Source: a virus (lineage: Duplodnaviria; Caudoviricetes). Taken from it: a stretch of DNA of 54,754 bases. The first letter of the stretch is position 1. Each line of letters starts with the position of its first letter. Under the pieces are notes generated by a model. The model was not told the DNA's origin. It saw only the letters and a list, made by a program, of their open reading frames with translations, and did not search any database. The stretch covers positions 1 through 54,754 of the IMG/VR virus record IMGVR_UViG_3300000234_000006. One strand, 5' to 3'. Position numbers and translations under genes: made by a program. This document shows positions 2,653-51,890 of this stretch, one piece after another.

Positions 2653-2660
2653 ATCCTTTC

Positions 2661-24004: not shown

Positions 24005-24538
24005 TCAAATTTCTGATACTTTCTTCAAATAAGAAGAAGGAAAATCTATAAGAAGCTTTTTGGAACTCATGTTTATAAAAATCTGGATAGTCTCGGAGTC
24101 GTCAGACACCAAAGAAACTTCACCTTCTAAACGCTTATAATCACCTTTCATGACCTTAACTCTGTCACCAACAGTAAATGGGGACTTTTTCATATTATCA
24201 AGACCATCTTTCATAGGATTTATATTTTTATCATCTATTAATGAATATGGTATAGATCCAGAAGGATTTTTTAAAACTAATTTGAAATAAGGAGCGGATT
24301 CCAAAGAAAAATAATTTATTCCTTCCTGATATCTTATGAAAATATATCCTTCCATAAAGCAAAAAGTCTGAGATTCATCTTGTCTCTTCAAGGAAACAGA
24401 AGGTATGAAAACCTCTACGTTGTTTTTTAACGTTTTAAAAATAAACCTTTTGATAAGGTCAAGGTTTTTTTCTTTCTCACCTGTATTCGATAACTGTACA
24501 GCGACCCACTTATTTGTTAAATCTTTCGGAGATTTCAT
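24005..24538 (-). CDS. nusG: NusG/RfaH-family transcription factor
   Basis: NGN domain (WVAV..GEKE..VFIP..EGYIFI) and KOW domain (FTVGDRVKVMKGDYKRLEGEV). Confidence 0.8.
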   Translation of the reverse strand: MKSPKDLTNKWVAVQLSNTGEKEKNLDLIKRFIFKTLKNNVEVFIPSVSLKRQDESQTFCFMEGYIFIRYQEGINYFSLESAPYFKLVLKNPSGSIPYSLIDDKNINPMKDGLDNMKKSPFTVGDRVKVMKGDYKRLEGEVSLVSDDSETIQIFINMSSKKLLIDFPSSYLKKVSEI

Positions 24539-26000
24539 TGGAAAGTTCCTTGTTTGTTATTGGAATATGAGATTTATCCAACTTTACTGTTGATAATTCA
24601 ACTTCAGGTTTACTGACTTTTACAATAGTTTTCTTGACTTTATGATCAAAAGAAGTAAGGGATTCACCAGGAGTGAAGTTTATACCATCAATTGATATCC
24701 CTCTAAAAAAGTCGGATTCTAAGAAATTCTCGCCCTCTATTAAAGAGGATGGGGGTTCTTCTTTCTTTGGCACTTTTATATTTGATTCTATGACCGAAAA
24801 ATCTGAATCATCACAAAAGTGATTTTTCTCTAAACGGTCAACCATCTCCCTAACTTCAGAAGTCAATTTTTCAAACTTCTCAAAATTACTGAGATCTGGG
24901 ACTGAATTAATAACAGGAGTCGGAATGGGATCTCGTAATTGAATAGGGGCAGGTGGCGTTTGAATCTGAACTGGAGGTACGAATATCGGTAAAGACTCAG
25001 TGCTGTTTATTATTACTGATATGATAGACGAAGGTTCAGGTTTATCGAGAAGAGCCAAATTGCTGGACAACTGAGCCCAAGATCGGCCTCTCTTACCATA
25101 AAAGCTGACTTTAGAAGGGTAAGAAGACTTCACTCCTATAGCTTCCTTTATTGAGTTAGATATTGCATTTACTATATTATCTCTGACCCAAAGAGAGCCA
25201 TTTGTTGACATAAGTTTTTCTAAAGTAGAAATGGAATATCTAATATCAGAGTCAAGTTTATCTAAAGATTCAGATATTTGGTCATAATCATCAAGTTTAA
25301 AATAAACGTCAAGATTTTGTTTATTCACACCACCAAGTTCATCCAAGTTGAACAATGATATGAGAGAAGTTCTCGGATTCCCGTGATTTAGCTTAATAAG
25401 AACGTCCAATAATTCATCATTAAATTCAATGTTTTCTTTTCTACAAACCTCTTTCAAATGCAACAAAGTGTCATCATGGGAAGGTATGCTTACCGAAAAT
25501 TCATCAACTCTATCACGTATGGCACTTCTTATGGAATGAGGCTCGGTGGTACAAAGTATCACCACCATCTTCCGTTCTTCCATAGGCTTCAAGAGTGCAT
25601 CTTGAGATTGTTTAGAAAGACGGTGTGCCTCGTCCAAAACTATAACTCTTGGTTTATTGTTTACAGTTCCATACTCCAAATCTTGAATAAGTTCACGCAT
25701 CTTCTCAACAGAACCCTGTGAAGAAGCATCAAATTCATCAAAATTTATTGAGTTACCATCTTTTATAGATATACAAGAGTCACATTTATCACAACTGATG
25801 CCGTCAACTGGATTGTCACATGATATTAACTTTGCACTTATACGAGCTAAAGTGGTCTTCCCACAACCTTTCGGTCCACCAAACATAAGGGAACGGCCCC
25901 CGAGGGAGCCATTCTTGGATTTCACCTTTAAAATTATCTTTATTGAATCGTTACCTATAATTTCATTAAGTTGAGAAGGTCTGTACTTCAAATCAAACAT
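24510..26000 (-). CDS. dnaX: DNA polymerase III gamma/tau clamp-loader subunit
   Basis: KYRP, Walker A GPKGCGKT, C..CxxCxxC Zn module, DASS, LDEAHRLS..QDALLK..EE, Pro-rich linker. Confidence 0.9.
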   Translation of the reverse strand: MFDLKYRPSQLNEIIGNDSIKIILKVKSKNGSLGGRSLMFGGPKGCGKTTLARISAKLISCDNPVDGISCDKCDSCISIKDGNSINFDEFDASSQGSVEKMRELIQDLEYGTVNNKPRVIVLDEAHRLSKQSQDALLKPMEERKMVVILCTTEPHSIRSAIRDRVDEFSVSIPSHDDTLLHLKEVCRKENIEFNDELLDVLIKLNHGNPRTSLISLFNLDELGGVNKQNLDVYFKLDDYDQISESLDKLDSDIRYSISTLEKLMSTNGSLWVRDNIVNAISNSIKEAIGVKSSYPSKVSFYGKRGRSWAQLSSNLALLDKPEPSSIISVIINSTESLPIFVPPVQIQTPPAPIQLRDPIPTPVINSVPDLSNFEKFEKLTSEVREMVDRLEKNHFCDDSDFSVIESNIKVPKKEEPPSSLIEGENFLESDFFRGISIDGINFTPGESLTSFDHKVKKTIVKVSKPEVELSTVKLDKSHIPITNKELSNEISERFNK

Positions 26001-26013
26001 AAAAATATTACAT

Positions 26014-26514
26014 TCATTTACATGCGTGAATCATTTCTTCAACGCTTTCATTCCAAGAACCGTGTCTAGTAACTATCTCCGGGAACTCTTGAACATTAGG
26101 AGGTCTTGTCCCGTAAGAAACGTTTCCAGTAACAGGATTCTCTTCAGCCACACATCTCATGAGAAGGTGGTCAAGAAGAGCTTTCCTTTTATTTGGAGGA
26201 TATTCATTCCAAACTTCCAAAGCGATTATCATGATAAAATCCGGCTCTTCACCAGAGTTCAAGAAAGAACCAGCATAACGCTCTAGAGGAGAAGCTTTTT
26301 TGACTGACCCCGGAACTTTTTGACCTGAAGATTTGGCAGCAGTATTCCTACAAAGAAATAGGAACTTTGCGTTTGCCAAATGAGGATGGTAATTCGGGAT
26401 CAAATCATTAAAAACAATTTCAGAAGCAGAGTCAAAGCCTCCATAAAGAAGAGGCATCTTTTCTTCTTTTTCTGGTTTACTGTTTTTTGGCTTTCTTACT
26501 TTTTCTTTTTCCAT
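26014..26514 (-). CDS. Phage putative metallopeptidase family protein with degenerate motif
   Basis: HPHL..DFIMII..W...ALLDHLLMRC..PPNVQEFPEIVTRHG.W; family pattern has HELxH..HDxEEF. Confidence 0.6.
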   Translation of the reverse strand: MEKEKVRKPKNSKPEKEEKMPLLYGGFDSASEIVFNDLIPNYHPHLANAKFLFLCRNTAAKSSGQKVPGSVKKASPLERYAGSFLNSGEEPDFIMIIALEVWNEYPPNKRKALLDHLLMRCVAEENPVTGNVSYGTRPPNVQEFPEIVTRHGSWNESVEEMIHACK

Positions 26515-27281
26515 ATGTACTCCTGAAATTCTCTCAAGAATTTTACACTACCAAATTCCTCGTAATATTCTCCAATATCTTTATGATAAACACGAGGATA
26601 TTTAATTTTTTCTACAAGTATTCTCTCATTTGACAATATTCCAGAAAGACTTTCAAATCCGGCATTACCAGCTTTATCCCTATCAAACGATATAACCATT
26701 TTATTCAGGAATCTACGCAGGAAAGAAAGCTGAGTTGGATTTGGCTCGTTAGTCATTAAGGATATAACTCTGTTATCGAGAAGATTGTCTATTACCAACT
26801 GGTCAAATGGACCTTCAACCAATATAGCGAATTTAGTATCCCAGATATCCTGAATGTTAGCCGCTATTCCGAAGAAAATGGCTTCAGGTTTATGACGAAA
26901 AGTAAAAGTATTATATACTTTCTCTTTCAAATTTCTACACTGGATGCCATATAATGTTCCAGAATAACTTGTTATAGGTAAAACTATAGAATTTAATATT
27001 CTGCCTGATACTTCGAATCCAAGGTCGTCATGACTTGATGACCATCTGTTGAATCTACAGGAGTCACATAATAATGACGAGTGTGTGCCTTTTTCAAAAC
27101 ACTTATCCGAGTGATATCTATCATCCCAATATGGGGCTTTGAATGGAGAAGAAACAAAACCAATCCTATGCTTCTTCCACTGATTTAAAGTAGAACCGCG
27201 TTTTAATAGATACTTTGTAGCAACATCTGAATCTAAAAGAGATTCATGACATTGATTAACAAAGTCATCAAGAAATTTCAT
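26496..27281 (-). CDS. dnaG: DnaG-type primase catalytic core (TOPRIM) lacking N-terminal zinc-binding domain
   Basis: YLLKRG, IGF, IVLPI..G, LVEGPFD, FDRDKAG, KDIGE. Confidence 0.75.
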   Translation of the reverse strand: MKFLDDFVNQCHESLLDSDVATKYLLKRGSTLNQWKKHRIGFVSSPFKAPYWDDRYHSDKCFEKGTHSSLLCDSCRFNRWSSSHDDLGFEVSGRILNSIVLPITSYSGTLYGIQCRNLKEKVYNTFTFRHKPEAIFFGIAANIQDIWDTKFAILVEGPFDQLVIDNLLDNRVISLMTNEPNPTQLSFLRRFLNKMVISFDRDKAGNAGFESLSGILSNERILVEKIKYPRVYHKDIGEYYEEFGSVKFLREFQEYIWKKKK

Positions 27282-30828: not shown

Positions 30829-31710
30829 TTATAGTACATCTAAACCACCCATTTCTTCTTCGGACAAAATCGTTTTCTTTTGAAGATTGAGTTTAAAATA
30901 TTCATTTCCCTCAGGACAAACAGGTCTATAATCACAAAGTTTGCATTCAGAAGAAGGTTTTGTAGGGAAAGAAGACTCACGAATTTTATTTGCGACATTA
31001 AAAATATCATTAAGTAACCTTTTGACGTCATCTTTAGAGTATGAAATATAAGAAATAGGATCTTCAGGAAAAGACCAGTAAATGAAACCAATTTGATTTG
31101 GATATACTCCATTTCGGGAGTAATAAAGAAAAGAATACCATATCACCTGAACTGGATCAGTATATTTGTCTCTATATATAGAAGACTTCCCATCAAAAAG
31201 AGAAACGTTTATTTTATCATTCGAATGACAAAAGTCCGCTTTTCCTCCTATTTTTAATTCAAAATCATACGACTTATGTTTGAAAGTTGAAGAAAGATCG
31301 ACTTCAGCCCAAGAATGTCTGGATATTAGTTTATTGCTTCTGATTATTTCAATACAAGTCGGAACAGAATCATGGAGTTTCCTATTGAGTTCATTTATAT
31401 AAGAATGATTGTTATAATCAGGAAACCTAGAAAGAGATTCTTTTATGGCATCTTTTATTGAATTTTTGGAAACTTCAACTGGGTTATCGCTGTTCCAAAA
31501 GCTTCTATTATAAAACCACTCCATGACTTTTCCTAGAGCTGATCCATATAAACTGGTGGTGGGGTCAATAACGACGTCCGGTTTAATGATATAAGAAAGT
31601 TGATATTTTCTGGGGCATATTGAATATGTTTTATATCCAGAATAACTAAGATAATCAGTTCCAGACCCAGAGTAACTAGAATAATCAACCATCTTCAACT
31701 CCTCCTTCAT
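30829..31710 (-). CDS. PD-(D/E)XK (RecB/Cas4-like) nuclease with Fe-S staple
   Basis: LSYS..CPRK, GKADF..FDGK..Q..Y, C-terminal CKLCDYRPVC. Confidence 0.8.
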   Translation of the reverse strand: MKEELKMVDYSSYSGSGTDYLSYSGYKTYSICPRKYQLSYIIKPDVVIDPTTSLYGSALGKVMEWFYNRSFWNSDNPVEVSKNSIKDAIKESLSRFPDYNNHSYINELNRKLHDSVPTCIEIIRSNKLISRHSWAEVDLSSTFKHKSYDFELKIGGKADFCHSNDKINVSLFDGKSSIYRDKYTDPVQVIWYSFLYYSRNGVYPNQIGFIYWSFPEDPISYISYSKDDVKRLLNDIFNVANKIRESSFPTKPSSECKLCDYRPVCPEGNEYFKLNLQKKTILSEEEMGGLDVL

Positions 31711-32665
31711 CTATAGATTCCATGATATTAATAATCATATTTTTTAGATCATCCGGATAGTCATTGAGTTTTTTCATTTTTTCTTCTTTTGTTTGTGAAG
31801 ATCCTGCTTGTTCCTTAAGATGCTTGATAAAATCATCGAGATTTTTCTTCTCCGACTCTATCCTTTTCTTCTTCTCAAAATCAAATACTTCCGATGCATC
31901 TTTATGAGGTATGACGATTTCTTCAACTGATATCCCAGAACTTGATATATTAATCATAGACATTTTAGGTTTTCTTTCTATATTCTCAAGAGTTAAAGCG
32001 CCTCTCGATACAGCACCTAAGTTTATGAACTTTACTCCCATATGATCAACTATCCCTTGATCTTTATGATAATGCCCAAAAACGTAAACATCAGGACAAC
32101 CCTCGAAAACAAGGTCTCTATAATCAAATATTTTTTCATTAAAAAATGTCTGAATCTTTTCCTCCGGAGCCATAGCAGCTAAAGCGTGAACAATGGCAAT
32201 GGTGTAGTTTTCATCTTTCTTTTTAACTTTGTCTTGTAAATATCCGTCATCCATGTCAGTTGTGTAATCGACACCGACAACTCTTATTTTCGTACTACCT
32301 TGTTCAAATGTCTTTTCAGAAAGATGATTGAAAAGACCAGAATTATATAAAACACCAAGTGGCTGTCTGTCGATGGTGTCAGGGTTATTCATCGACATAT
32401 CATGATTTCCGCTTATGGAATAAACTTCCCCATGATAATTCTTATGAAGATTAAATACAGATGAAAGAGTGGACATTGAAGTCCTGCTTGACTTCTTCAA
32501 ATGAAAGAAGTCACCTCCTCTTATAAAAACATCAGATAAACTGGAGCGGGAAAGTTGACCCTGCCATTCAAGAATTGATAAAATATCGGATCTATAGTCA
32601 TCTTTTCGAGATGATGGGTTTACGTCTGAAAGATGTTCATCTGAAGATGTCAAAATACGAAACAT
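31685..32665 (-). CDS. sbcD: SbcD/Mre11-like metallophosphoesterase nuclease
   Basis: SDEH, GGDFFH, GNHD, VH, GHYH, NLG motifs. Confidence 0.85.
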   Translation of the reverse strand: MFRILTSSDEHLSDVNPSSRKDDYRSDILSILEWQGQLSRSSLSDVFIRGGDFFHLKKSSRTSMSTLSSVFNLHKNYHGEVYSISGNHDMSMNNPDTIDRQPLGVLYNSGLFNHLSEKTFEQGSTKIRVVGVDYTTDMDDGYLQDKVKKKDENYTIAIVHALAAMAPEEKIQTFFNEKIFDYRDLVFEGCPDVYVFGHYHKDQGIVDHMGVKFINLGAVSRGALTLENIERKPKMSMINISSSGISVEEIVIPHKDASEVFDFEKKKRIESEKKNLDDFIKHLKEQAGSSQTKEEKMKKLNDYPDDLKNMIINIMESIDEGGVEDG

Positions 32666-35583: not shown

Positions 35584-37845
35584 CTAAGATTCGTTTACCT
35601 TTTTGGTTATGGAAACCTTCGTGAGTTCACAAAGATTAGTATTTCTTCTTGAATCTTTATCAATACTGGCGGCTACTCGAAATGCATCAAGTTCGCCAAT
35701 CATGAATACTTTTTTCTTAGCTCTTGTTAAAGCTGTGTAAACCAAGTTCTTATAAAGCATAACACCATACGAGTATGTCATTGGCATAACAACATAGTCA
35801 TACTCCTGGCCTTGAACTTTATGGACTGTTACAGCATACGCGACTTTCAATTTATCTCTAGATTCAGCAATGTTAAATTCTATCGTTTTATCGTGATATG
35901 AATTGTTTTCAGAGTCATACCAATTGAAAACCTTTATTGTTATTTTATCATCTTTCAAAGAAATATTGGTAACTTTGCCAACGTCTCCATTATAAACACC
36001 ATTTTGATAGTCATTTTTGACGATCATAACTCTATCGCCAATATAAATGTCAACTTCACCAATTTTAACCTTTGGGGATTCATATTCAAAATCTGTGTTC
36101 AGAATTTCTCTCAAATTCTCGTTTAAATTATTAACTCCGTTTATACCGTTGTACATCGGAGCTATCACCTGAAAATTTCTTTTCTTCTCGAAAAGAACAG
36201 AAGCCAAGTTTGTTATGTGTCCAAGTATCGATTCTTTATTACATGGTATATAAGTTATTTCAGATTGAGAGTCTATTTTTATGTCTATAGGTTCATTTTT
36301 CAAAATGGAATGGGCAGTTGTTATGATAGAGCTAAGTTTTTGCTGCCTATAAATATCTGTGAGTTTTACATGCCCGATTATATTATCTTTCCCAAGTTCA
36401 ATAAGCTGAGATAAAACGCTCCCAGATCCAACAGAAGGAAGCTGGGCATCATCACCAACCATAACGAGAGTCGTGTTTTCAGAAAGTGACTTTAAAAGTG
36501 TATGGAATAAGCGAGCGTCAATCATCGACATTTCGTCGATAATAACAACACTAGATTGAAACCTATTGTCCTGATTAAACATCCAGGTATCGGAAATAGG
36601 ATTATAACCAAGACCTCTGTGGATAGTTGTTGCTGGGACGCCGGTTACCTGAGAGATTCTCTTTGCAGCTATACCAGTGGGGGACATTAGGGAGAAATCT
36701 ATACTATTATATTTCAGCATTTTCACTATAGCAGAAATGAGAAGGGTTTTTCCGGTTCCAGGATATCCGGTAATAACACAAACTTTATGCTCCGAAAGCA
36801 TGTGGAAAGCTGATTTTTGCTGATCAGAAAGTATTATATCATTTTCAGCCTCATATTTATTTATGGAAGATTCAACCTGTTCTTTTGAAAAATTCGGGCT
36901 ACCAATAAGTTTGGCTAGAAATGAAGAAGCACCATTTTCATATTCAAAATCAGAAGATATATATAAACATCTTCGACCGTCAGAAGTGTTATAATACTTT
37001 ATCTTGTCATCAACCTCCAGCGCTTTCAAGGCATCATAAAAAACAGTTGATGGGAGATTTGAATCTGTGAAAAATTTACTATTTATATAATTCTTTATAG
37101 TATCTGAATCTGTGAACATATTTCCATTTTGGAAGTTCACTTCATTTATAGAATGAAGTATCATGCACTTAATACGAGATTCATTTAAAACATCAAAACC
37201 TAAATTTAGGGCTATTCTGTCGATAGAACCAAACCCTATACCATTAACGTCAAAAAGTATATAAGGATTTTTCTTAATAAGTTCTAACGTACCAGAATCT
37301 ATGCGGAATGAACTGAGAAAGGATTTTACCTGTTTAGTATTTAACCCATTATCAGTTAAAAATATTACAACACTTCTGTTGCAATTTGAATTCGACCACT
37401 CTGCTATAATGGAACTTATCTGACTTTTATTTAAAAATCCGGCTTCCGAAATTCGTTCAGGACTGTCATTGAGTACATTGATGAGGTCTTCACCGAAAAA
37501 ATCATATAATTTTTCGGCTGTTATAGGTCCTATTGATTTAACATTGCTTACAAGATATTTTACTACGCCAATTTTCCCACTGTCTGGGATGATGTTACAA
37601 GACAAAGCGTGGATTTGATATCCATACTTTGGATGTTTATCGACAGAACCTTTTATTGATACCTTAACTCCAGGTTCTATCTTCACCCCAAAAAATTGAC
37701 CTCGAACAGAAATGTTATCGTTTTTATCTAAAAGATCTGGATAGTCATCAAATTCAGATGTGTCATTGAATTTTGCTTTGAATATATAAAAACCATTAGA
37801 ATGATTACTATATATTACCGAAGTGACTTTCGCTATAAGTTCCAT
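35584..37845 (-). CDS. recD2: RecD2-like SF1B helicase
   Basis: HPKYG.Q, HhH IGPITAEK, GYPGTGKT, SPTGIAAK, TIHR, DEMSM, GDDAQLPSV, YRQ, AYAVTVHKVQGQE, YTALTRAK. Confidence 0.92.
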   Translation of the reverse strand: MELIAKVTSVIYSNHSNGFYIFKAKFNDTSEFDDYPDLLDKNDNISVRGQFFGVKIEPGVKVSIKGSVDKHPKYGYQIHALSCNIIPDSGKIGVVKYLVSNVKSIGPITAEKLYDFFGEDLINVLNDSPERISEAGFLNKSQISSIIAEWSNSNCNRSVVIFLTDNGLNTKQVKSFLSSFRIDSGTLELIKKNPYILFDVNGIGFGSIDRIALNLGFDVLNESRIKCMILHSINEVNFQNGNMFTDSDTIKNYINSKFFTDSNLPSTVFYDALKALEVDDKIKYYNTSDGRRCLYISSDFEYENGASSFLAKLIGSPNFSKEQVESSINKYEAENDIILSDQQKSAFHMLSEHKVCVITGYPGTGKTLLISAIVKMLKYNSIDFSLMSPTGIAAKRISQVTGVPATTIHRGLGYNPISDTWMFNQDNRFQSSVVIIDEMSMIDARLFHTLLKSLSENTTLVMVGDDAQLPSVGSGSVLSQLIELGKDNIIGHVKLTDIYRQQKLSSIITTAHSILKNEPIDIKIDSQSEITYIPCNKESILGHITNLASVLFEKKRNFQVIAPMYNGINGVNNLNENLREILNTDFEYESPKVKIGEVDIYIGDRVMIVKNDYQNGVYNGDVGKVTNISLKDDKITIKVFNWYDSENNSYHDKTIEFNIAESRDKLKVAYAVTVHKVQGQEYDYVVMPMTYSYGVMLYKNLVYTALTRAKKKVFMIGELDAFRVAASIDKDSRRNTNLCELTKVSITKKVNES

Positions 37846-37847
37846 TT

Positions 37848-38651
37848 TTAACTTCCACTAAGCAAAGACTGAAAACCAGCCTCATCAATTATTGTAACAT
37901 TATACTTCTTAGCTTTTTGCATTTTTGAAGTATTGGAATTAGTTTCATTGGTAATAAGATAATCAGTGGAGGAACCTACTGAATCTTTAACAATCCCTCC
38001 GTTTTCTTCTATTATGGATTCAAGTTTATTTCTCGGGACACTAGTTGCCCCAGTTATACAAAAAGTCTTACCAATAAGAGGACCAGAAACCTCCTTAAAA
38101 GTCAACTTCGAAGCTAATGAAAGAATGGACTCTTTACGATAAGACAAAGAATCAAAAATATCGTTGGCCGTTATAGGGCCAACATTTGGGACTTTTAAAA
38201 GGTCTTCCAAACTCATAGAAAAGAAATAATCCAAGAAATCAATATTCAAATTCTGGCTTTGGAAATGATGATATACATCGTGGGATGTTGAAGTGGAAAG
38301 ATTCCTTATATTCAAAGAGCCTAAAAATGAATCATATGTCATATTCTTTTTACTATGGAGTTCATTATATAACTTGGTGGCCATTTTCATACCAGAGCAA
38401 TGGATCGATAAATCGTGGGCGGATAAATCATAAATTTCATGTAAATCATTAACATACGTCATGTTCGACGAATTAACTAAAGAATTTAGTACAGCGTCAC
38501 CCCAATTTAGGATGTTGAGTTTTTTAATCCAAGTTTTTAAAGTTCCAAGTAGCTGACTTGGACAACTTTTGTTGGTGCAGTATAAAAACTGACCAATTAT
38601 TTTAGTTTCTTCTGAACAAGAAGGACATTTATTTGGGTATTCAAATTTCAC
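37848..38651 (-). CDS. ligA: NAD-dependent DNA ligase C-terminal half (Zn finger-HhH-BRCT)
   Basis: PNKCPSC..YCTNKSC Zn finger, HhH VPNVGPITA, BRCT GKTFCITG..GG..SV..TDYLI..SK..KA. Confidence 0.85.
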   Translation of the reverse strand: MKFEYPNKCPSCSEETKIIGQFLYCTNKSCPSQLLGTLKTWIKKLNILNWGDAVLNSLVNSSNMTYVNDLHEIYDLSAHDLSIHCSGMKMATKLYNELHSKKNMTYDSFLGSLNIRNLSTSTSHDVYHHFQSQNLNIDFLDYFFSMSLEDLLKVPNVGPITANDIFDSLSYRKESILSLASKLTFKEVSGPLIGKTFCITGATSVPRNKLESIIEENGGIVKDSVGSSTDYLITNETNSNTSKMQKAKKYNVTIIDEAGFQSLLSGS

Positions 38652-38664
38652 ATTTGATTATACA

Positions 38665-39150
38665 TCAATCGTCATCATCTTCTTCGTCGTCGGAGTCATC
38701 ATCAGAATCGTCGTCATCTTCTTCCGACTCATCTTCTTCGTCAGATTCGTCAGAATCATCGTCTTCCGAGTCATCATTCTCCAGGGCGGGGGGCGTTGAC
38801 CCTGGTTCTGCACCACCGAATGGTACAAAGTTTTCTGATTCTTCAGGGGTAACATTTCCATAACTGAATTCATTATCAGCCATGGTGAGTTTACCTTCAT
38901 AAAAAGCCTTCGAAAAAGCAGAAAGCTCTGTTCCTATCGAAAGAACAGATTCAGATATTTTCATTAAACGGTCGAGTTCCTCACCAACGAAATCGCTCTG
39001 AAGTCTGGCGAGCTTAGCATATAAAACATGGGAATCTTTTAAAACGTCAGCGACGTAAGAATTCACTCTCTGCCATTCTGAGTCACGGTCTGAATTAGAG
39101 GCAACCTTAAAATTCTTTAATACCTGATCTGCAGCTTTTTTTATCCTCAT
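38665..39150 (-). CDS. Hypothetical protein with long poly-acidic C-terminal tail
   Basis: Likely start ATG 39150 (MRIKKAADQVLKNFKVAS); the final ~37 residues are all D/E/S. Confidence 0.65.
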   Translation of the reverse strand: MRIKKAADQVLKNFKVASNSDRDSEWQRVNSYVADVLKDSHVLYAKLARLQSDFVGEELDRLMKISESVLSIGTELSAFSKAFYEGKLTMADNEFSYGNVTPEESENFVPFGGAEPGSTPPALENDDSEDDDSDESDEEDESEEDDDDSDDDSDDEEDDDD

Positions 39151-39196
39151 GATAAAAATTAGAAAGAAAAAAAAGTTCAAATAATGTAAATTTGAT

Positions 39197-40297
39197 ATGA
39201 ACAAAGAAGAACTGGATAAAATAATTCAAAAAGTCAAAGAGGCAAGAGAAGATTATTATAATCTAAATCCAAAAATAAGTGATGAAGAGTATGACTTATT
39301 GGTTGAAATTATCAAAAAAGAAAAACCAGACGAAAAAGAAGTATTGAAAGTCGGGGCGGAAGTACCAAAGAACTCCGTTTGGAATAAAATCAAACATGAT
39401 ATGGTGATGGGGTCACTAAATAAAGTAGTGACTTTCGAAGAGCTGAATGAATGGAGAGATAAATATCATATAAAAGAAATGTTCATGACCCATAAAATAG
39501 ACGGGTCTTCTCTCGAAATAGTATATGAGGATGGAGTTCTTAAAAGTGGAATTACAAGAGGGGATGGTGTTGTAGGAGAGGATATAACTGAAAATATTGT
39601 TAATATTCCAAATATCCCAAAAACCATCAAAGTAATGGGAAAGGTGAACATAAGAGGTGAAGTTGTTATGACAAAGAAGGTGTTCAAAGATCATTATTCT
39701 GATGAATATGCAAATCCAAGAAATACTGCAAATGGAAAGGTCAGAGAAAAGAAAAACGGAGGGAAAGATTGCTTGAATCTAAGATTCATAGCGTATAACA
39801 TGCTGATCGACGGAATGTTTTATGAAGGGACAATGAGTGGTTTGATATTGAATCTTAAAGGATTGGGGTTTGAAATACCACATTTCTTCATTATTGCAAA
39901 TAACACTGAAGACCTCAAGAAAAAATATGATAATTATTTGAAGGGTGAAGATATTGAGTATGAAATTGATGGATTAGTTGTTTCTTGTGAAGATTTGAAG
40001 TTATTGAATGAACTCGGCGATGAAAATATGAGGCCGTTAGGTCAAATCGCTTGGAAGTTCCCTTCAACTATGAAAAGTTCCAAAATAACTGGTATTCAAT
40101 GGCAAATAGGTCCGTCTGGAAGAATAACACCAGTGGCGAAAATTGAACCTGTTGAAATTGAAGGAGTTAAAATAACGTCAGTTTCACTCCATAACATGAA
40201 TATTTTTAATGAACTCAACTTGCACTTAAACGATGAGGTTTTGATTTCAAGAAGAAATCAAGTCATTCCATACGTTGAAAAGAATTTATCAAGATAA
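39197..40297 (+). CDS. ligA: NAD-dependent DNA ligase N-terminal half (Ia, adenylation, OB domains)
   Basis: YY..ISDEEYD, KIDG, TRGDG, RGEV, NPRN, EIDGLVV, IAWKF, GRITPVA, SLHN; ends just after motif VI-like RRNQVIP. Confidence 0.92.
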   Translation: MNKEELDKIIQKVKEAREDYYNLNPKISDEEYDLLVEIIKKEKPDEKEVLKVGAEVPKNSVWNKIKHDMVMGSLNKVVTFEELNEWRDKYHIKEMFMTHKIDGSSLEIVYEDGVLKSGITRGDGVVGEDITENIVNIPNIPKTIKVMGKVNIRGEVVMTKKVFKDHYSDEYANPRNTANGKVREKKNGGKDCLNLRFIAYNMLIDGMFYEGTMSGLILNLKGLGFEIPHFFIIANNTEDLKKKYDNYLKGEDIEYEIDGLVVSCEDLKLLNELGDENMRPLGQIAWKFPSTMKSSKITGIQWQIGPSGRITPVAKIEPVEIEGVKITSVSLHNMNIFNELNLHLNDEVLISRRNQVIPYVEKNLSR

Positions 40298-40495
40298 ATT
40301 CTTTATTAAATTTTCAAGAATTTCTATAGATCCAAGAGACACACATGTAAACCTTATTTCTTGTTTATCATATTTACCAATAATGTCCTGTAAGAAAACC
40401 GGTCCTTCATCAGTGTGAAGGACCGGACCCTTATCTGTAACCTCTAAAACTGCATCTAATATTATTCCGGTATCGATCTCATGATCAGTCATCAA
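40289..40495 (-). CDS. Hypothetical protein
   Basis: 68-aa ORF coupled to thioredoxin. Confidence 0.5.
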   Translation of the reverse strand: MMTDHEIDTGIILDAVLEVTDKGPVLHTDEGPVFLQDIIGKYDKQEIRFTCVSLGSIEILENLIKNLS

Positions 40496-40823
40496 GAACG
40501 ATACCGGCTTCTTCCAGCATACTGGAAACGCCGTTTTTATTCATAGTTCCAGCTCTGGTTTTAGCGTTGGAACCGTCAACGAATATTGCAACAGTTGGTA
40601 AGCTTCTAACATATTTGGAAGATTCTGAGAAAGAATCTATGTCTATAACAACACATTTTATGGCATTCTTATGATTTTCGTTGAATTTCTCAAGAATCGG
40701 AAGCATGATTTTGCAAGCAGAACACCATTTGGCTGTGAAAAGAGCCAAAACAGGTATTTTAGAGTCCAAAACTTCGTTTTGGAAATTTGGGCTTCCGACT
40801 TTGGTTAATTTTTGCATGAGCAT
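40485..40823 (-). CDS. trxA: Thioredoxin
   Basis: FTAKWCSACK active site, cis-Pro VRSLPT; adjacent to RNR. Confidence 0.85.
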   Translation of the reverse strand: MLMQKLTKVGSPNFQNEVLDSKIPVLALFTAKWCSACKIMLPILEKFNENHKNAIKCVVIDIDSFSESSKYVRSLPTVAIFVDGSNAKTRAGTMNKNGVSSMLEEAGIVLDD

Positions 40824-40884: not shown

Positions 40885-43686
40885 TCAAGAGCATCCTGTT
40901 GTGGTTCCGCAGTTCGTGCAAAGATAACAAGAACCGTTTCTGAAAGTCACCGAACTACAATTCGAACAAAGGGGTGCATCAAGTGACTTCGACGGTTTGA
41001 AATTATGGTCATGATCACTCAAATCCTCAGGGAATGCATTATCATCGGATTCATCCCGAGACATGCTTTCACCGTCCGGTGGGGCTTTTGAAGCCCGGAT
41101 TTTATCGACGGTGTTTTTTATTTCGGAATATTCACCGCCATAATATTTCAGGTCCAAAACCTTGAATATGTAGTCATATAAACTACTGGAGAAAGGAATG
41201 TCAGGGTTGTTTGTCATCCCGGCAGGATCAAACTTTGTATTCGTGAAACTTGGAACAAACCTGTTCAGAGGAATGCCATATTGTAAAGCAATACTGAGAA
41301 GCTGGGTGAAACCGTCCAAAAGGCCGGATACGGTGCTCCCAGGTTTACCGAGCTTCAGAAAAACTTCACCAGGACGACCATCGGGGTATTCATTTACGAT
41401 CAAATATCCTTTATATCCATCAATACTGAATTTATGCCTCCAACCAGTTATATCATCAGGAAGTCTTTGTCTGGTTGCTTTTGTTGACTTAAGTATCTTC
41501 TTATCAAAAGACTTTGAAGGCTCTTTAACTTCCTTTACATCCTCAGTTTTTGTTACGGACAGAGGCTGAGAAGCCTTACAACCATCTCGATAAAGAGCAA
41601 CACATTTTATCCCCATCATCCAAGCAGACATGTAAATATTTGCTATTTCTTCAACCGTGGAACTGTTGGGGAGGTTCACAGTTTTGCTTTGAGCACATGT
41701 GATGTTGGGCTGTATGGCTGCCATCATTTTAAGATGGGCCATTGGCGTTAAACATCTTCCATTTGGACCAACTGGAAGGGCACAATCAAATACTGGCCTA
41801 TGAGCGTTAAGAAGGTATTCACAACCATCAACGTGGCCATGTACGTCTATATACTTCAGTATTTCCTCTATTGATTCGTCTGTATAATAGAGATTTTTAA
41901 GAGCAATCGGAACATCCTTATTAACAATCTTAGCGTAGCCACCACCAACCATGCTCTTATATGAAACAAGACCTATGGCTGGCTCGATACCAGTGGTGTT
42001 CATCCCCATAAGAAAGCTTATGGTTCCGAGAGGAGCCTGGAGAGTGGCTTGAGAAATATTATACCCATAAGTTTCTCCATAAGAGATGACCTTTTCCCAA
42101 AGGTTTTTTGAAAAATTATAAATTTCTTCAGTAGGGCCACTGACTAAGTGATCCCTGTGCATTTTCATGACATCAAGCATTTCCTCTTTGTTATTTTCGA
42201 ATTCAGGGAATGGGAAAGTCTTTAAGGCAATACCAGAAGAACAAAGATAAACAATTCCAGTCATCATGCTTGCTAAAGCAGCAGCATACTGTCTTCCAAT
42301 ATCCGAGTCATAAGAATGACCCATGCGCATCAAAAGAGAACCCAAATCACCATAATTAGTTCCGATGGGACGGAGCTTATGGGAGTTTATCTTGATAGCT
42401 TCTGTAGGGTATTCTGCCTTACCAACAATTGCCATTTGGCTTACAGAAAAGACACGAATCGCGTTACAATAATCAAAGATGTTGAGTTTATTTTCTGAAT
42501 TGAAATACTTTGTGAGATTTATAGCACAAAGATTACAGGCAGTATCATCTACGTGGAGAAATTCGGAACAGGGGTTTGAAGCTCTAATTCGTCCGGCATT
42601 CGGAGTCGTGTGCCATTTATTGATTACAGTTGTGAATTGTATGCCGGGGTCTCCGCAAATCCAAGCAGCATTTGCGATTTCTTTCCAAAGGTCCTTGGCT
42701 TTATAAGTATTTATTGGTTCGCCATTAACACGAGAAGTCGTACACCATTCGCCGTCGTTCAAAACAGCATTCATGAACTCGTCAGATATACTGACCGAGT
42801 TATTCGCGTTTTGGAATTTAACACGTTTATATGCCCCATTAGGGTCGTCGTAATTTACACTATACCCAATTTTAACCAAATCATGAGCAAGCTTCTCTTC
42901 GACAGCTTTGCAGGTTATGAAGCCCGGTCGACCATCACGAGTTTGAAGAATGTCTGGATGATCAATATCCAGAACATTCATTTTGGCAGCGTTTCTCGTC
43001 GCACCACCAGATTTCATAGCTCCAGCATAAGAGTCAAGACCGTTCATCCAAGACATGGGTCCTGAAGTATAAGAACCGGCTGAGATCTTTTCCCAAGAAG
43101 ACCTGAGATTCGATAAGTTAGCACCAGATCCAGAACCGCCACGGAAAATGGCAATTTCTGATTTCTGATAATCCATGATATCGTCGAGAGAATCCTCGAT
43201 ACCAGAGATAAAGCAAGCAGAAGCAGCTTGTTTTCTCCCAGGAACACCAAGATTGAACCAAACAGGAGAGTTGAAAGCTCCGTATTGATGGACTAAACAA
43301 TAAAGAAGTTCATCTTCATAGACGTTAGCATCTTCGCTGGAGTCAAAATAATTTTGTTCAGTAGCCCAATGCTTGAGTGCAGCGACAACTCGTGAAAACA
43401 TTTCTTTAGCAGAAGATTCTTTATATTTTGAAGAACCGTTTCCTATCCAACGAAAATATTTCTCAGCAACGATGTTGATGGTGTTTTGGTCCCAAAAATC
43501 TGGGACTTCAACGGAAAGCTGCTCGAAAACAACTTTTCCAGTAGAATTCATGATCCGTGCGTCAGCACGAACCCATTTAACAGTATCAAACGGGTGAACA
43601 GATTGACTAGTGAAATGTCTTTTCCATTTTCCAGGATTCTCAACAAACTTAGAAAGAATGTTTGCGTACACGGAATTGTCAGACAT
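40885..43686 (-). CDS. nrdJ: Class II (adenosylcobalamin-dependent) ribonucleotide reductase
   Basis: AFNSPVWFN, SACFI, GSGSG.NLS, SNPCSEF..ACNL, APLGTISF, SKTVN, YRDGCK, C-terminal domain ending CSNC..CYLCTNCGTTTGCS. Confidence 0.93.
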   Translation of the reverse strand: MSDNSVYANILSKFVENPGKWKRHFTSQSVHPFDTVKWVRADARIMNSTGKVVFEQLSVEVPDFWDQNTINIVAEKYFRWIGNGSSKYKESSAKEMFSRVVAALKHWATEQNYFDSSEDANVYEDELLYCLVHQYGAFNSPVWFNLGVPGRKQAASACFISGIEDSLDDIMDYQKSEIAIFRGGSGSGANLSNLRSSWEKISAGSYTSGPMSWMNGLDSYAGAMKSGGATRNAAKMNVLDIDHPDILQTRDGRPGFITCKAVEEKLAHDLVKIGYSVNYDDPNGAYKRVKFQNANNSVSISDEFMNAVLNDGEWCTTSRVNGEPINTYKAKDLWKEIANAAWICGDPGIQFTTVINKWHTTPNAGRIRASNPCSEFLHVDDTACNLCAINLTKYFNSENKLNIFDYCNAIRVFSVSQMAIVGKAEYPTEAIKINSHKLRPIGTNYGDLGSLLMRMGHSYDSDIGRQYAAALASMMTGIVYLCSSGIALKTFPFPEFENNKEEMLDVMKMHRDHLVSGPTEEIYNFSKNLWEKVISYGETYGYNISQATLQAPLGTISFLMGMNTTGIEPAIGLVSYKSMVGGGYAKIVNKDVPIALKNLYYTDESIEEILKYIDVHGHVDGCEYLLNAHRPVFDCALPVGPNGRCLTPMAHLKMMAAIQPNITCAQSKTVNLPNSSTVEEIANIYMSAWMMGIKCVALYRDGCKASQPLSVTKTEDVKEVKEPSKSFDKKILKSTKATRQRLPDDITGWRHKFSIDGYKGYLIVNEYPDGRPGEVFLKLGKPGSTVSGLLDGFTQLLSIALQYGIPLNRFVPSFTNTKFDPAGMTNNPDIPFSSSLYDYIFKVLDLKYYGGEYSEIKNTVDKIRASKAPPDGESMSRDESDDNAFPEDLSDHDHNFKPSKSLDAPLCSNCSSVTFRNGSCYLCTNCGTTTGCS

Positions 43687-44557
43687 TTTTCTTCGGCTCC
43701 TCAGAGATCTGGATTATTTGGATTTCTAAGTCAGGTTTCACGTTTTTTCCTGACTTATGGGAGAAATCCAAAAAAGAAAGCTTCTTTAGGGTTTGAGACA
43801 GAAATTCGTTCGACCAAGAATCTATAAAATCGATATACTGTTTCCTGATGACAAAAGAATGTACACCAAGAAGGCTTGACATCTCATTTTCACTCTTCCC
43901 GGAATGACACAATTTGTTAACCAAAAACTGATTCGAAACTGATCGCATCAAATAAGCTAATATCCAACCTGTCTCATCATTACGACTTTGAAGAACGTCA
44001 TAATAGGTCATCGCTTTTTTTGAGTTAAATTCATAGATTGAGTCTATGATGTTTTTAGGAGTTATCTCTACCGAAAATATTAAAGAACCTTTGATTATGT
44101 CGGGAGTGGGTTTTTTTATGGAATGGTGTTGGCATATTATGGATATTTTTTCTATCTCAGAATTTATCTTTCGGAGACTATTTCCCAAGTTAACAAAAAG
44201 GTAAAAAGCTACTCGTGATAAATCGATTTTGAATCTTTCGCCCTCTTCTATAATCCAGTTTATTATTTTTTCTTTTTCATACGGTTTAAACTTTGAGAAT
44301 TTTTGCTTTTGTGATTTAAAAGGTAAATCCTTTTTCGGATTGACCACAAATACGAGGTCACTTTCCTCAAAGTGAAGACTTGAAAAGTCAACATCCCCTT
44401 CTATTATATAGGTTCTTGTTTTATTATCGAGCCAGTTATTTATGCGATTTTTGGTTATAAAAATGGTTTCTTCTGACAAAAAACTAGAAGATTCAGATTT
44501 TATGAATCTTTCTATCAAAAAGTCTTCATCACCGGATATTTGATAGAACCTCGCCAT
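43679..44557 (-). CDS. holA: DNA polymerase III delta subunit-like
   Basis: GDEDFLIE start, GNSLRKINSEIEKI, LGVHSFVIRK, LSFLDFSHKSG. Confidence 0.75.
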   Translation of the reverse strand: MARFYQISGDEDFLIERFIKSESSSFLSEETIFITKNRINNWLDNKTRTYIIEGDVDFSSLHFEESDLVFVVNPKKDLPFKSQKQKFSKFKPYEKEKIINWIIEEGERFKIDLSRVAFYLFVNLGNSLRKINSEIEKISIICQHHSIKKPTPDIIKGSLIFSVEITPKNIIDSIYEFNSKKAMTYYDVLQSRNDETGWILAYLMRSVSNQFLVNKLCHSGKSENEMSSLLGVHSFVIRKQYIDFIDSWSNEFLSQTLKKLSFLDFSHKSGKNVKPDLEIQIIQISEEPKKNV

Positions 44558-44567
44558 GAGAGGTAGA

Positions 44568-45341
44568 TTACATCACAGAAGATATTATGAAATTTTTCCA
44601 GTGAAGTTCAAAATCGCAGCTTGGGACCTTTTTAACTCTGGAGCTGAATTCAAGATAAAGCTTGTGGTATTTAGTGAAAGAAAAAATTTTGTTTAAAATA
44701 TGCATTAAAACAAATTTTAATTCGGGAGTTAACTCAGAGATTTTAAAGGGAAAGAAACAGTCCATAACATCAATACTTTTATATTTGAATTTAAGAGCGA
44801 ATTCTAAAATCTTCGAGTTATAATTCAAATGATAATAAATTCCAGGCTTTCCCGAAGAAAGTTCAACTGCGATTTCATTAACGTCCCCATACTGAGAAGC
44901 AAAATTTCGCATCTCTTCGTTATTTAAAATATTAAATCTTATGGAATGACGCATTCTTGAAAGAAATGTTTTATTGAAATAATATCCATTATCGTAGACC
45001 ACTATGATTTTTGAAGAATTTGGTGGTTCTTCAAGAATTTTCAAAAACGCATCTTGAGCAGTGTAATTCGAATAATCATCAAAATATATCATATATCGTC
45101 TAAAATCACTAAGCGGATAAGTTGATAAAACGCTCTGTATGCTTCTTATTCCGTCTAAAGAAGCATCTAAAATATGAGTGTCTTCCTTATGAAAGGAAGA
45201 CAACAAATCCGATATAATAGTTTTCTTCCCTAAAAATTCAGGACCACCAACAAAACAAACGCCATGTTCTTTATTATTTAAGAAGTTTTTTATTTCCAGA
45301 ATCTGATTCTGGTGTCCGAAATATTGAATAGTCAATTTCAC
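44568..45341 (-). CDS. holB: DNA polymerase III delta-prime subunit-like
   Basis: FGHQ, degenerate Walker A GPEFLGKK, AQDAFLKILEEPP, TFLSR, GKPG. Confidence 0.7.
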   Translation of the reverse strand: MKLTIQYFGHQNQILEIKNFLNNKEHGVCFVGGPEFLGKKTIISDLLSSFHKEDTHILDASLDGIRSIQSVLSTYPLSDFRRYMIYFDDYSNYTAQDAFLKILEEPPNSSKIIVVYDNGYYFNKTFLSRMRHSIRFNILNNEEMRNFASQYGDVNEIAVELSSGKPGIYYHLNYNSKILEFALKFKYKSIDVMDCFFPFKISELTPELKFVLMHILNKIFSFTKYHKLYLEFSSRVKKVPSCDFELHWKNFIISSVM

Positions 45342-45486: not shown

Positions 45487-45686
45487 TAAATATTAATAAA
45501 TCCGCCAGTTTGAATAGTCCAAACATAATTACATTTTTTGCATTTAAAAGTCACCGAACTAGAAACGTTTGTGAGTTTCTCAGCTTGAAGAGAATCGCAA
45601 GACTGACCCCCGGTAGAAGGGTCTGAACCTCTTCTGCATTTGACGAGAACTGTGGGGTTGGCTTCAGCTTTAGGAGTATTGGACAT
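45486..45686 (-). CDS. Small zinc-ribbon protein
   Basis: KC..SCDS..FKCKKCNYVW. Confidence 0.5.
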   Translation of the reverse strand: MSNTPKAEANPTVLVKCRRGSDPSTGGQSCDSLQAEKLTNVSSSVTFKCKKCNYVWTIQTGGFINI

Positions 45687-46024
45687 TAGAATTCGTTCCT
45701 ATCACTGAACTCTACCATAATATAAGCTTTTATCTTTTTATCAACGTCAAAAGGAGTTAGATATCCATCATTCCCAATAAGTTTATTTGCTATTAAATAA
45801 CACTTTTGATAATCATCATAGTTCACTCTAAAAATTTTAGCATCTGGTTTTTTAAGAGATACAACAACATAGCCAGTTCCATTGGCGGACATTTGGTTTG
45901 ATATTGAGAGGTTATTTGATATAAGATATTTAATAAGAAGGGGATAATTATCCAGAGCTTCACTCTGGGAAGCTAACCTAAATAACTTCCCATCAGAAAA
46001 TCTGTCTTTATGAGTTCCATCCAT
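45686..46024 (-). CDS. Hypothetical protein
   Basis: 112-aa ORF, coupled stop/start. Confidence 0.5.
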   Translation of the reverse strand: MDGTHKDRFSDGKLFRLASQSEALDNYPLLIKYLISNNLSISNQMSANGTGYVVVSLKKPDAKIFRVNYDDYQKCYLIANKLIGNDGYLTPFDVDKKIKAYIMVEFSDRNEF

Positions 46025-50702: not shown

Positions 50703-51890
50703 ATGAATAGTGGTAAAATGAGTTTCGTAATAGATGCAATGCATGGTTCTTCCGGTAAGGGGAAAATTTCCACTTATCTTGCTGATAAGCATAGTTTTAA
50801 TGTTGTTTCTAGCGCAAACTTCCCAAACGCCGGTCATAGCGCGATTTTTGATATAGGAATTAAATTCGTTTCTAAGGCCATTCCGACTTCAGCAATTTTG
50901 AAAAAGGCGAATCATGTAAATATGACTTGCCTCATTTCGCCGGGGTCTGGTTTTAAATGGGAACAACTCATTAAAGAGTGGGTTGAGTGTGGATTTCCAA
51001 AAATCATAATTCACTCGCGCGCGTCAGTTGTTACCGACCTCCATACCCAAAGAGAGCGTGAGGGGTCAGATAGCACAAAGCATATCGCATCCACCATGCA
51101 AGGAAGTGCAACAGCTCTTTCGGATAAAATCCTGCGCCGTAAGGGACTTAAACTTGCCGGTGATTACGACCTTTTTGAAGTTTTCGATGAAATCAAGAGC
51201 CCGGACCTTGAGAATTTGAAGCTCATGTTCATGGAGCAGGTCACGGTGGTTGACGCCATGGAATTCAGGAATATAACTCATTCTTATTTGGAATCTGGAA
51301 ATAATATTCTTCACGAGGGTTCTCAGGGATATGCACTTTCCATTGATCACGGATCCCACTACCCGGCCTCAACTTCAAGAAATTGTTCGACCCAAGCTGC
51401 CATGGACTATATGGCAGTCCCCGCCTCAAAAGTCGGGGATGTTATTCTGAACCTCAGAACGTATCCAATTCGAGTAGGCAATGTTGTGGAAAATGGAGTT
51501 GTTGAAGGCTACTCCGGTGATTTTTATCCGGATTCAAAAGAACTGACTTGGGATGAGGTCGCGAAGCTTTCTGGGATGCCGGATGAGGAAGCGCAGCTTC
51601 TAACCCAAAGAGAACTCACGACGGTTACGAAGAGGCTAAGAAGAGTATCTACTTTTTCTTATGTGGGACTTGCTGACGCCGTACGAACAAATGGTGCCAC
51701 TTCTTTGTCTGTGAATTTCATTCAGTATATCAATTGGCAGGACAATAAACTTCGAGGCGGAGTTGAAGCGTTCAATAAACTTTCAAAGGAAAGCCGGAAG
51801 TTTTTGGATTCTGTTGAAAATGCTTCGGGCATTCCTGTCGTGTTGATAGGGACTGGTCCGAATCATGAAGATATTATTGATTTGACTTAA
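50703..51890 (+). CDS. purZ: PurZ-like adenylosuccinate-synthetase-family enzyme (candidate 2-aminodeoxyadenylosuccinate synthase)
   Basis: GSSGKG in place of PurA GDEGKG; PNAGH, ST..G, EGSQG..LS..HG.YP..TSR, RTYPIRV, SG..YPDS.E, TTVTK..RR, NFIQY in place of TKLD, GTGP. Confidence 0.75.
   Translation: MNSGKMSFVIDAMHGSSGKGKISTYLADKHSFNVVSSANFPNAGHSAIFDIGIKFVSKAIPTSAILKKANHVNMTCLISPGSGFKWEQLIKEWVECGFPKIIIHSRASVVTDLHTQREREGSDSTKHIASTMQGSATALSDKILRRKGLKLAGDYDLFEVFDEIKSPDLENLKLMFMEQVTVVDAMEFRNITHSYLESGNNILHEGSQGYALSIDHGSHYPASTSRNCSTQAAMDYMAVPASKVGDVILNLRTYPIRVGNVVENGVVEGYSGDFYPDSKELTWDEVAKLSGMPDEEAQLLTQRELTTVTKRLRRVSTFSYVGLADAVRTNGATSLSVNFIQYINWQDNKLRGGVEAFNKLSKESRKFLDSVENASGIPVVLIGTGPNHEDIIDLT

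Follow-up and report, generated by a model that had tools for sequence, protein, structure and literature searches.

We describe a pair of genes, ligN and ligC, that very probably constitute a genuine and evolutionarily fixed two-gene NAD+-dependent DNA ligase (LigA) of a huge phage, located in its replication module; their products would reassemble into one enzyme. The genes lie on opposite strands, with a third gene, mid, between them, in a 54,754-bp stretch of Caudoviricetes DNA (the complete IMG/VR record IMGVR_UViG_3300000234_000006), all of which was analyzed and which we refer to as the window. The record is rated 13% complete, which implies a genome of ~400 kb, and the window is a piece of a huge-phage genome; the clade to which it belongs consists of uncultured phages with genomes of ~300-440 kb. 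A LigA in two pieces, cut at the hinge between the OB fold and the zinc finger, is an already known enzyme type in T5-like phages, because a T5-type ligase cut in the same linker is in print and solved structures are available (PDB 9hu3 and 9i5i). What is new is the fixed non-collinear layout of the two genes, the motif [CT]GTA ~13 nt upstream of both halves, and the orphan gene mid, which always accompanies the halves and is once fused to the C-terminal half.

A probable ligase encoded by two genes

The locus consists of the following features (ORF, open reading frame).

37848-38651, minus strand: ligC, 267 aa, GTG start; four-cysteine zinc finger, HhH region and BRCT domain (ORF, Pfam, structure alignment)
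38652-38664, minus strand: 13-nt spacer between the mid stop codon and the ligC start; TGTATAAT at 38657-38664, abutting the mid stop codon and at -13 of the ligC GTG
38665-39150, minus strand: mid, counted from its first ATG; orphan 161-aa gene between the halves, with a predicted two-helix-hairpin core and disordered acidic tail
39151-39196: 46-bp divergent spacer between the mid start and the ligN start; TGTAAATT at 39185-39192, at -12 of the ligN ATG
39197-40297, plus strand: ligN, 366 aa; domain Ia, adenylation domain with KxDG, and OB fold (ORF, Pfam, structure alignment)

The original prediction, made from the letters of the sequence alone, had described an N-terminal half that stops at VIPYVEKNLSR, a C-terminal half that begins, after its GTG start, with KFEYPNKCPSC, and an acidic gene between them, and the ORFs are found exactly so. 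In ligN, Pfam detects the adenylation domain (PF01653, E 5.5e-47) and the OB domain (PF03120, E 8.7e-22, residues 295-364), and among the solved LigA chains the protein aligns to residues 23-390 of 1v9p, with K100, D102 and G103 placed on the KxDG motif of that enzyme. Domain Ia is present: residues 19-60 of ligN align to the N-terminus of 1v9p and 1dgs from residue 23, and among 27 sequences Y20, D29 and D33 are invariant and Y21 is nearly invariant. These four residues probably contact the nicotinamide mononucleotide moiety. The 27 aligned N-halves have an overall identity of only ~50%, and K100, D102, G103, R121-G124, R153-E155, N173-N176, D258, G259 and K287 are invariant in all of them.

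The C-terminal half aligns to residues 401-657 of 1dgs and 403-669 of 2owo. The zinc-finger cysteines C9, C12, C25 and C30 match cysteines of both structures and are invariant in 23 C-halves, as are T200, P206, R207, G218 and G219 of the BRCT domain (PF00533, E 1.4e-15, residues 189-261). Pfam returns a single HHH match, below its cut-off (E 4e-4; 20.5 bits vs 24), and the HhH region is alignable over its full length to the corresponding part of 1dgs and 2owo. Apart from the weakly matched HhH region, the motifs of both halves are intact, as had been proposed.

Because of these alignments to 1v9p, 1dgs and 2owo, the break is placed in the OB/zinc-finger linker, in agreement with the earlier assignment. 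Only 4 residues separate the end of the OB domain from the end of ligN, and 8 residues separate the start of ligC from its first zinc-finger cysteine. Jointly the two proteins span a LigA from domain Ia to BRCT, with nothing lost or added. Alignment of the junction with fused relatives reveals no extra residues at either side of the cut, and therefore neither intein halves nor added tails; zipper-like segments are likewise lacking, so the two proteins remain separate. LigA is normally a single polypeptide, and at all 24 clade loci it is instead represented by ORFs on opposite strands.

In the mechanism that we favor, ligN would perform the first step, self-adenylylation from NAD+, by means of domain Ia, the nucleotidyltransferase domain and the OB fold, whereas the zinc finger, HhH and BRCT parts of ligC would grip the nicked DNA for the later steps. 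The two proteins would come together without a covalent bond, probably at the nick, like the T5-type LigA/LigB. The argument for such a heterodimer is the T5 precedent together with the co-conservation of the halves. That an N-terminal fragment alone is not enough follows from Haloferax LigN 1-417 (Ia, adenylation and OB), which, according to the accessible part of PMC1684257, equals the full enzyme in self-adenylation and is inactive in ligation. A complex prediction for ligN, ligC and mid, with mid as the partner, gave scores of 0.00 and 0.00 in a run without controls and is uninformative either way.

Conservation of the layout among relatives

We scanned IMG/VR with the N-half alignment and obtained 43 loci, at which the ligase parts and their neighbors were placed by tblastn. 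At 24 of these the N-half is 44-52% identical to that of the window, and 23 of the 24 share its layout, namely recD2(-) ligC(-) mid(-) | ligN(+) ... rnr(-), where rnr is a ribonucleotide reductase gene. Two near-duplicate pairs from different records are included in the 24 (L007/L008 and L026/L028). The records that share the layout include genomes with direct terminal repeats (DTR) rated 100% complete, of 436,316, 426,960 and 393,220 bp. The other 19 loci (28-35% identity) comprise 12 with a single fused ORF of 611-641 aa, five with an ORF of N-half length and no C-half within 5 kb, one (L036) where the gene is cut by another gene, and one that ends at a contig edge. A search of a protein collection with the N-half returned 754 matches at E ≤ 1e-20, ranging from 201 to 641 aa; among the best 120 of these, 119 are 343-402 aa long and one has 630 aa. 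The N-half protein of the window itself is also encoded on a 322,391-bp contig represented in this collection.

Contigs from public sequencing runs were compared with window positions 38300-40600. One contig of 89,390 nt covers all of this segment, and is perhaps from the source sample and hence not independent. Contigs of X2 (another sample) and X3 (possibly the study of the source) cover 38300-39303 and 39282-40498/40505 with zero differences, and contigs of X4, a relative ~94% alike from another study, cover 38300-39195 and 39411-40521. The ligC/mid and mid/ligN junctions and the 3' end of ligN are all bridged by independent assemblies, with no joints reported. The layout is also beyond chance because 23 other contigs keep it. 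The divergent layout is not a misassembly.

A shared signal upstream of both halves

As the original prediction had noted, the two halves share an upstream motif, TGTANNNT, which is found at -12 of the ligN start and at -13 of the ligC start. The set of window genes used for counting comprised 46 ORFs, that is, the 61 ORFs of at least 100 aa minus 15 that overlap on the opposite strand or lie near the window ends, with mid taken from its ATG. Of the 46 ORFs, 11 have TGTANNNT (often ATGTAAT) at 12-15 nt upstream of the start codon and 14 have it within 40 nt upstream, while the entire window contains only 65 copies on both strands. The motif also lies upstream of the following ORFs.

Minus strand, ORFs starting at 15621, 22184, 23990, 26000, 27281, 32665 and 44557
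Plus strand, ORFs starting at 50703 and 51962

Counts across relatives were made at 22 non-duplicate divergent loci (L008, L028 and L009 omitted).

[CT]GTA at -18..-10: ligN 18/22; ligC 22/22; mid 1/22; all ATG-initiated ORFs of at least 150 aa, 56/205
Shine-Dalgarno-like 4-mer at -16..-7: ligN 2/22; ligC 0/22; mid 11/22

The [CT]GTA core is kept at the same distance though the G+C content of the relatives differs widely. At the related locus L025, where ligC lies in tandem behind ligN, ligC is preceded by GGAGG and lacks the [CT]GTA motif. The signal looks like a start-proximal promoter producing near-leaderless mRNAs, or else like a translation signal of one gene class. Judging from these upstream sequences, ligN and ligC would belong to one expression class, and ligC may have acquired its own copy of the signal upon losing co-transcription with ligN. 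The copies of this clade-wide signal in front of each half could then keep the opposite-strand halves co-expressed. The window also encodes a protein with a sigma-70 region 4 domain (22187-22966, minus strand; PF04545, E 2.7e-14), which is a candidate for recognizing the promoters of this clade.

The gene between the halves

Translated from its first ATG, mid has 161 aa; an alternative TTG start would give a 179-aa ORF that overlaps ligN. Two helices are predicted, at residues 2-51 and 56-84, with a predicted local distance difference test score of 87-98 over residues 21-90, followed by a variable, acidic tail that is predicted to be disordered. The core of ~80 aa is 53-78% identical to that of the window at the divergent loci, compared with 36-53% for the ligase halves. 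Database searches returned no Pfam family, no PHROGs family in more than one of 22 members, no tblastn match among GenBank phages, no Foldseek match in the PDB at E ≤ 1e-3, and only generic helical hairpins in the ESM Atlas. When the locus was searched against GenBank phages by blastn, only the acidic low-complexity tail of mid was matched. A profile search of 1.84 billion representatives produced 70 clusters at E ≤ 1e-10, followed by a gap in E-values beyond which lie three weak matches to very long repeat proteins; a word-based search produced 192 clusters, none of them functionally named and the longest of their contigs having 444,958 bp.

The distribution of mid raises the question of whether it is a third part of the ligase, acting as a clade-specific tether or regulator of the split enzyme and thereby supplementing the two-gene ligase rather than replacing it. 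We regard this as a tentative proposal with a small chance of being correct. In its favor, mid adjoins the ligase halves at every one of the 24 divergent loci, and L025 has a mid-like ORF beside ligN. In two complete genomes mid has a single copy, which sits at the ligase locus, and no match to it was found in three records with a fused LigA (G007, 76% complete; G008; G009). Its core is also more conserved than the ligase halves. One protein cluster (P0274) is a natural mid-ligC ORF of 453 aa, in which mid reads straight into ligC via 11 extra codons, on three contigs of which the longest has 342,457 bp; such a fusion would be a weak link of the 'Rosetta stone' type between mid and ligC. P0274 was sought in IMG/VR and not found, and a metagenome scan produced only a 60% relative, L071 (L071:1134-2564), which is the nearest retrievable relative and has two separate ORFs 30 nt apart. 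P0274 is thus a single cluster and may reflect an inconsequential lost stop codon. The co-distribution of mid and the split halves also represents one clade and so one event, and a genome with a fused ligase (P0097, discussed below) seems to carry mid too (P0203, on a contig of equal length, 398,656 bp). The hairpin fold is generic and without an informative match, and mid, with a Shine-Dalgarno-like site and without [CT]GTA, seems to be expressed differently from the halves.

In this three-part arrangement mid would bind one half through its hairpin, with its acidic tail covering the DNA-binding face of ligC until a nick is encountered. A fuller version, which we consider similarly doubtful, is a three-protein NAD+ ligase restricted to this clade, in which a dimer of mid hairpins with a DNA-mimicking tail on ligC would tether or gate the halves, and a control region in the 46 bp between mid and ligN would maintain the divergent orientation.

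Probable origin of the split and of the inversion

The locus L025, whose N-half is 45% identical to that of the window, has the order rnr(+), mid-like(-), ligN(+), ligC(+), recD2(+). Its ligN (362 aa) and ligC (254 aa) are in tandem, separated by the stop codon and one base before the next ATG. The mid-like ORF (157 aa, with an acidic tail) lies upstream of ligN on the minus strand and divergent from it, and aligns with the mid profile in collinear order across 77 columns (hhalign probability 70%, E 4e-5). Flipping the segment that contains the mid-like ORF and ligN yields exactly the order of the window, and the position of the mid-like ORF beside ligN implies that mid moved with ligN in the inversion. 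The head-to-tail arrangement that the original prediction expected from inverting ~38655-40295 therefore occurs naturally. In the more distant outgroup locus L029 there is one LigA of 629 aa, in the order rnr, small ORF, LigA, recD2, and no mid.

Maximum-likelihood trees, made at the 'quick' setting, place L025 as the sister of the clade of all divergent sequences, both in the N-half tree (all 24 divergent rows; 41 rows in total, with copies L001, L003 and L009, truncated L048 and five identical duplicates omitted; Shimodaira-Hasegawa-like approximate likelihood ratio test (SH-aLRT) 97) and in the tree of N- and C-halves (30 rows, with long-branched L004 and L005 omitted; SH-aLRT 99). Because L025 already has two ORFs without the inversion, and because T5-like phages carry the cut in tandem, the order fused gene, tandem split, inversion of mid and ligN is the more likely one. 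A fused ligase gene between the RNR and RecD2 genes would thus have been cut at the OB/zinc-finger linker to give tandem genes, after which mid and ligN would have been inverted once, without repeats, and the layout fixed in a large clade. The proposal that an old inversion produced the split stands in part: the split is natural, old and conserved, and one inversion relates the two layouts, but the tandem split of L025 and of T5-like phages argues against inversion as the cause of the split.

Inverted repeats were considered as the cause of the inversion and are ruled out, since none is present at the segment ends, as had also been stated originally; a repeat search of 37700-40700 gave 96 pairs, of which the longest 25 are AT-rich, lie scattered and match at 70-89%.

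Several observations weigh against the two-gene ligase and the history proposed for it. The order of split and inversion rests on one tandem contig, L025, which is 10% complete and long-branched and has an odd amino-acid make-up in common with the window. In each of the three trees the fused 630-aa LigA P0097 (48% identical, on a contig of 398,656 bp) groups within the divergent clade, which calls for a re-fusion or for at least two splits or inversions unless P0097 is basal. Approximately unbiased (AU) tests allow the 24 divergent rows as a clade without P0097 (p 0.116 and 0.281), and P0097 may be a re-fusion of the split gene or a misplaced basal lineage. It was sought in IMG/VR and not found, and a scan of GTDB returned only bacterial LigAs of 30-35% identity. 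Finally, the complete 436-kb relative G001 contains ATP-dependent-ligase-like ORFs of 422 aa (PF01068 and PF14743) and 214 aa (PF01068), so the split LigA need not be the only ligase of the phage. These ORFs are located at 45512-46009 and 287505-288005.

Alternative interpretations

The halves could have become sub-functionalized, with ligN working with another DNA-binding partner or as a mere adenylyltransferase, and ligC serving as a free BRCT/HhH scaffold of the replisome. The opposite strands and separate expression signals, the lack of added interaction segments at the cut, the additional ligase-like ORFs in G001, and the location of the parts ~9.6 kb apart in another jumbo-phage lineage are all compatible with such a separation. 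We nevertheless consider it improbable. Both halves are kept, and always close to each other, at 24 of 24 loci; the ligase motifs and the four cysteines are all invariant; ligN and ligC carry the same upstream signal; a LigA N-fragment is inert in ligation in the accessible part of PMC1684257; and the T5-like pair with the same cut is present as two chains in single PDB entries.

Far less credible is an assembly artefact or an on/off inversion switch, where the collinear or fused gene would be the true or the alternative form. The window is a metagenome contig of low estimated completeness (13%), and contigs drop rare variants, so that a minor orientation could escape notice. This interpretation is largely refuted because 23 other contigs, with proteins only 44-52% identical, have the same layout and because other assemblies bridge the junctions; in addition, the segment has no inverted repeats at its ends, no recombinase gene was seen inside it, and the genes possess separate starts, stops and upstream signals. 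That the genes are decaying remnants of a rearranged ligase gene, as the non-collinear rearrangement and the other ligase-like genes of the relative might suggest, is refuted by conservation, the ORFs being full-length at all 24 loci with invariant catalytic and zinc-binding residues despite ~50% divergence.

Gene content of the window

The ORFs of at least 100 aa from position 1 to ~48,800 are nearly all on the minus strand, which makes ligN the sole turned gene of this stretch, and by Pfam the stretch is a replication and nucleotide module. Its recognizable genes, with the neighbors of the ligase locus, are listed below.

23034-23990: 5'-3' exonuclease (Pfam)
24510-26000: clamp-loader subunit (Pfam)
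26496-27281: Toprim protein (Pfam)
30829-32665: PD-(D/E)XK nuclease and metallophosphoesterase (Pfam)
35584-37845, minus strand: RecD2-like helicase, adjoining ligC downstream, with conserved synteny (Pfam, relatives)
40289-40495, minus strand: 68-aa ORF convergent with ligN, with a 9-nt overlap of the 3' ends (40289-40297); far boundary of the inverted segment
40485-40823, minus strand: thioredoxin, conserved upstream neighbor of the ligase locus
40885-43686, minus strand: class II ribonucleotide reductase (rnr), conserved upstream neighbor of the ligase locus
43679-44557: clamp-loader subunit (Pfam)
44568-45341: clamp-loader subunit (Pfam)

In L014 and L017, weak matches to the 68-aa ORF lie close to the ligase. 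By tblastn the rnr match is in two pieces ~1.1-1.3 kb apart in L011, L018, L022 and L027, and the recD2 match is in two pieces in L010 and L014 (~1.1-1.3 kb apart) and in L015 (~240 nt), as if the genes flanking the ligase carried inteins, introns or endonuclease insertions. A 964-aa ORF at 9651-12545 (minus strand) has a LAGLIDADG_3 match (E 3.8e-8) and an intein-splicing match below the cut-off (E 1.5e-6); it is probably an intein within a large gene whose own family has no Pfam name. The stretch 20583-22184 (minus strand) encodes a Mom-family domain (PF25680, E 9.4e-21), and 50703-51890 (plus strand) a short, 395-aa adenylosuccinate-synthetase-like protein (PF00709, E 2.7e-34). Short homologues of adenylosuccinate synthetase (PurZ) are linked to 2-aminoadenine DNA, and the two genes are a hint of modified bases in the DNA of this phage. 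A G+C-rich patch at 1759-2850 (0.57 at 2001-3000 vs ~0.35 elsewhere) contains long overlapping ORFs on both strands (1759-2652, minus; 1906-2850, plus), in which Pfam detects no family.

Comparison with known systems

The closest known system is the T5-type ligase. A split NAD+ ligase of phage T5 is mentioned in the accessible part of PMC1684257, and the genes are named ligA and ligB in that of PMC3632103. PDB entries 9hu3 and 9i5i pair a 339-aa chain named 'DNA ligase (NAD(+))' with a 248-aa chain named 'DNA ligase subunit B', the latter matching subunit B of Pectobacterium phage DU_PP_V at E 1.2e-71; a literature search found no paper on these entries. Titles and abstracts retrieved for heterodimeric NAD+ ligases contained none on a split phage ligase, and the jumbo-phage overview PMC7824862, in its accessible part, mentions NAD+ ligases and no split. 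The T5-type enzyme has the same cut in the OB/zinc-finger linker, as seen when the junction is aligned with DU_PP_V, fused relatives and L025, the same domains in each part, no inteins, and similar sizes (325+249 aa in DU_PP_V and 339+248 in 9hu3, compared with 366+267 in the window). It differs in that the DU_PP_V genes are tandem, co-directional and 190 bp apart, whereas the halves of the window are divergent with mid between them, and protein identity to the window is only ~28-29%. In the N-half tree the T5-like row stands far off, on a long branch pairing with PhiPA3; because fused forms stand nearer to the clade of the window, the split of this clade is likely to be independent of that in T5.

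Single-chain LigAs (E. coli 2owo, Thermus filiformis 1dgs/1v9p, PhiPA3 gp257 and that of Clostridium phage c-st) are alignable end to end in all six modules and differ in being one polypeptide rather than two. The closest matches among cultured phages are such fused LigAs, at 32-34% identity.

A third comparison is with the 'fractured genes' of PMC2677866, which in its accessible part describes phage genes broken by endonucleases or inteins, one DNA ligase included, and models them as the result of an invader that is lost and parts that are later dislocated. The likeness is an essential replication enzyme in two genes at one locus. In the clade of the window the cut lacks intein halves, a nuclease gene is absent between the two parts, and one part is inverted, whereas the fractured genes described there keep the original orientation. 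A homing endonuclease was considered as an identity for mid and rejected, since it has no Pfam or PHROGs family and a helical hairpin is predicted. In L036 (L036:4992-7856), from another phage lineage, an opposite-strand LAGLIDADG_2 endonuclease gene (PF03161, E 5.6e-29) interrupts LigA within the zinc finger, past the first CxxC. In G002, a complete 243,336-bp DTR record, a 366-aa N-half ORF and a 295-aa C-half-like ORF lie ~9.6 kb apart on the same strand, and G003 and G004 are similar; the ligase parts of G002 are positioned as follows.

~142,955-143,788: ligase part of G002
~153,415-154,512: ligase part of G002, same strand

Taken with the clade of the window, these systems offer a large natural set of pairs from which to learn how halves meet without added interaction segments, and they mark the OB/zinc-finger hinge as a natural engineering site for two-piece ligases; mid and the [CT]GTA signal provide handles on gene regulation in the uncultured huge phages of this clade. 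The window clade indicates that the genes of a cut ligase can be mutually inverted and yet persist across a clade that has diverged to ~50% protein identity. The LigA clamp thus appears to have been cut repeatedly and independently in phages at this hinge, in tandem in T5-like phages, divergently in the clade of the window, and again in L036 and G002.

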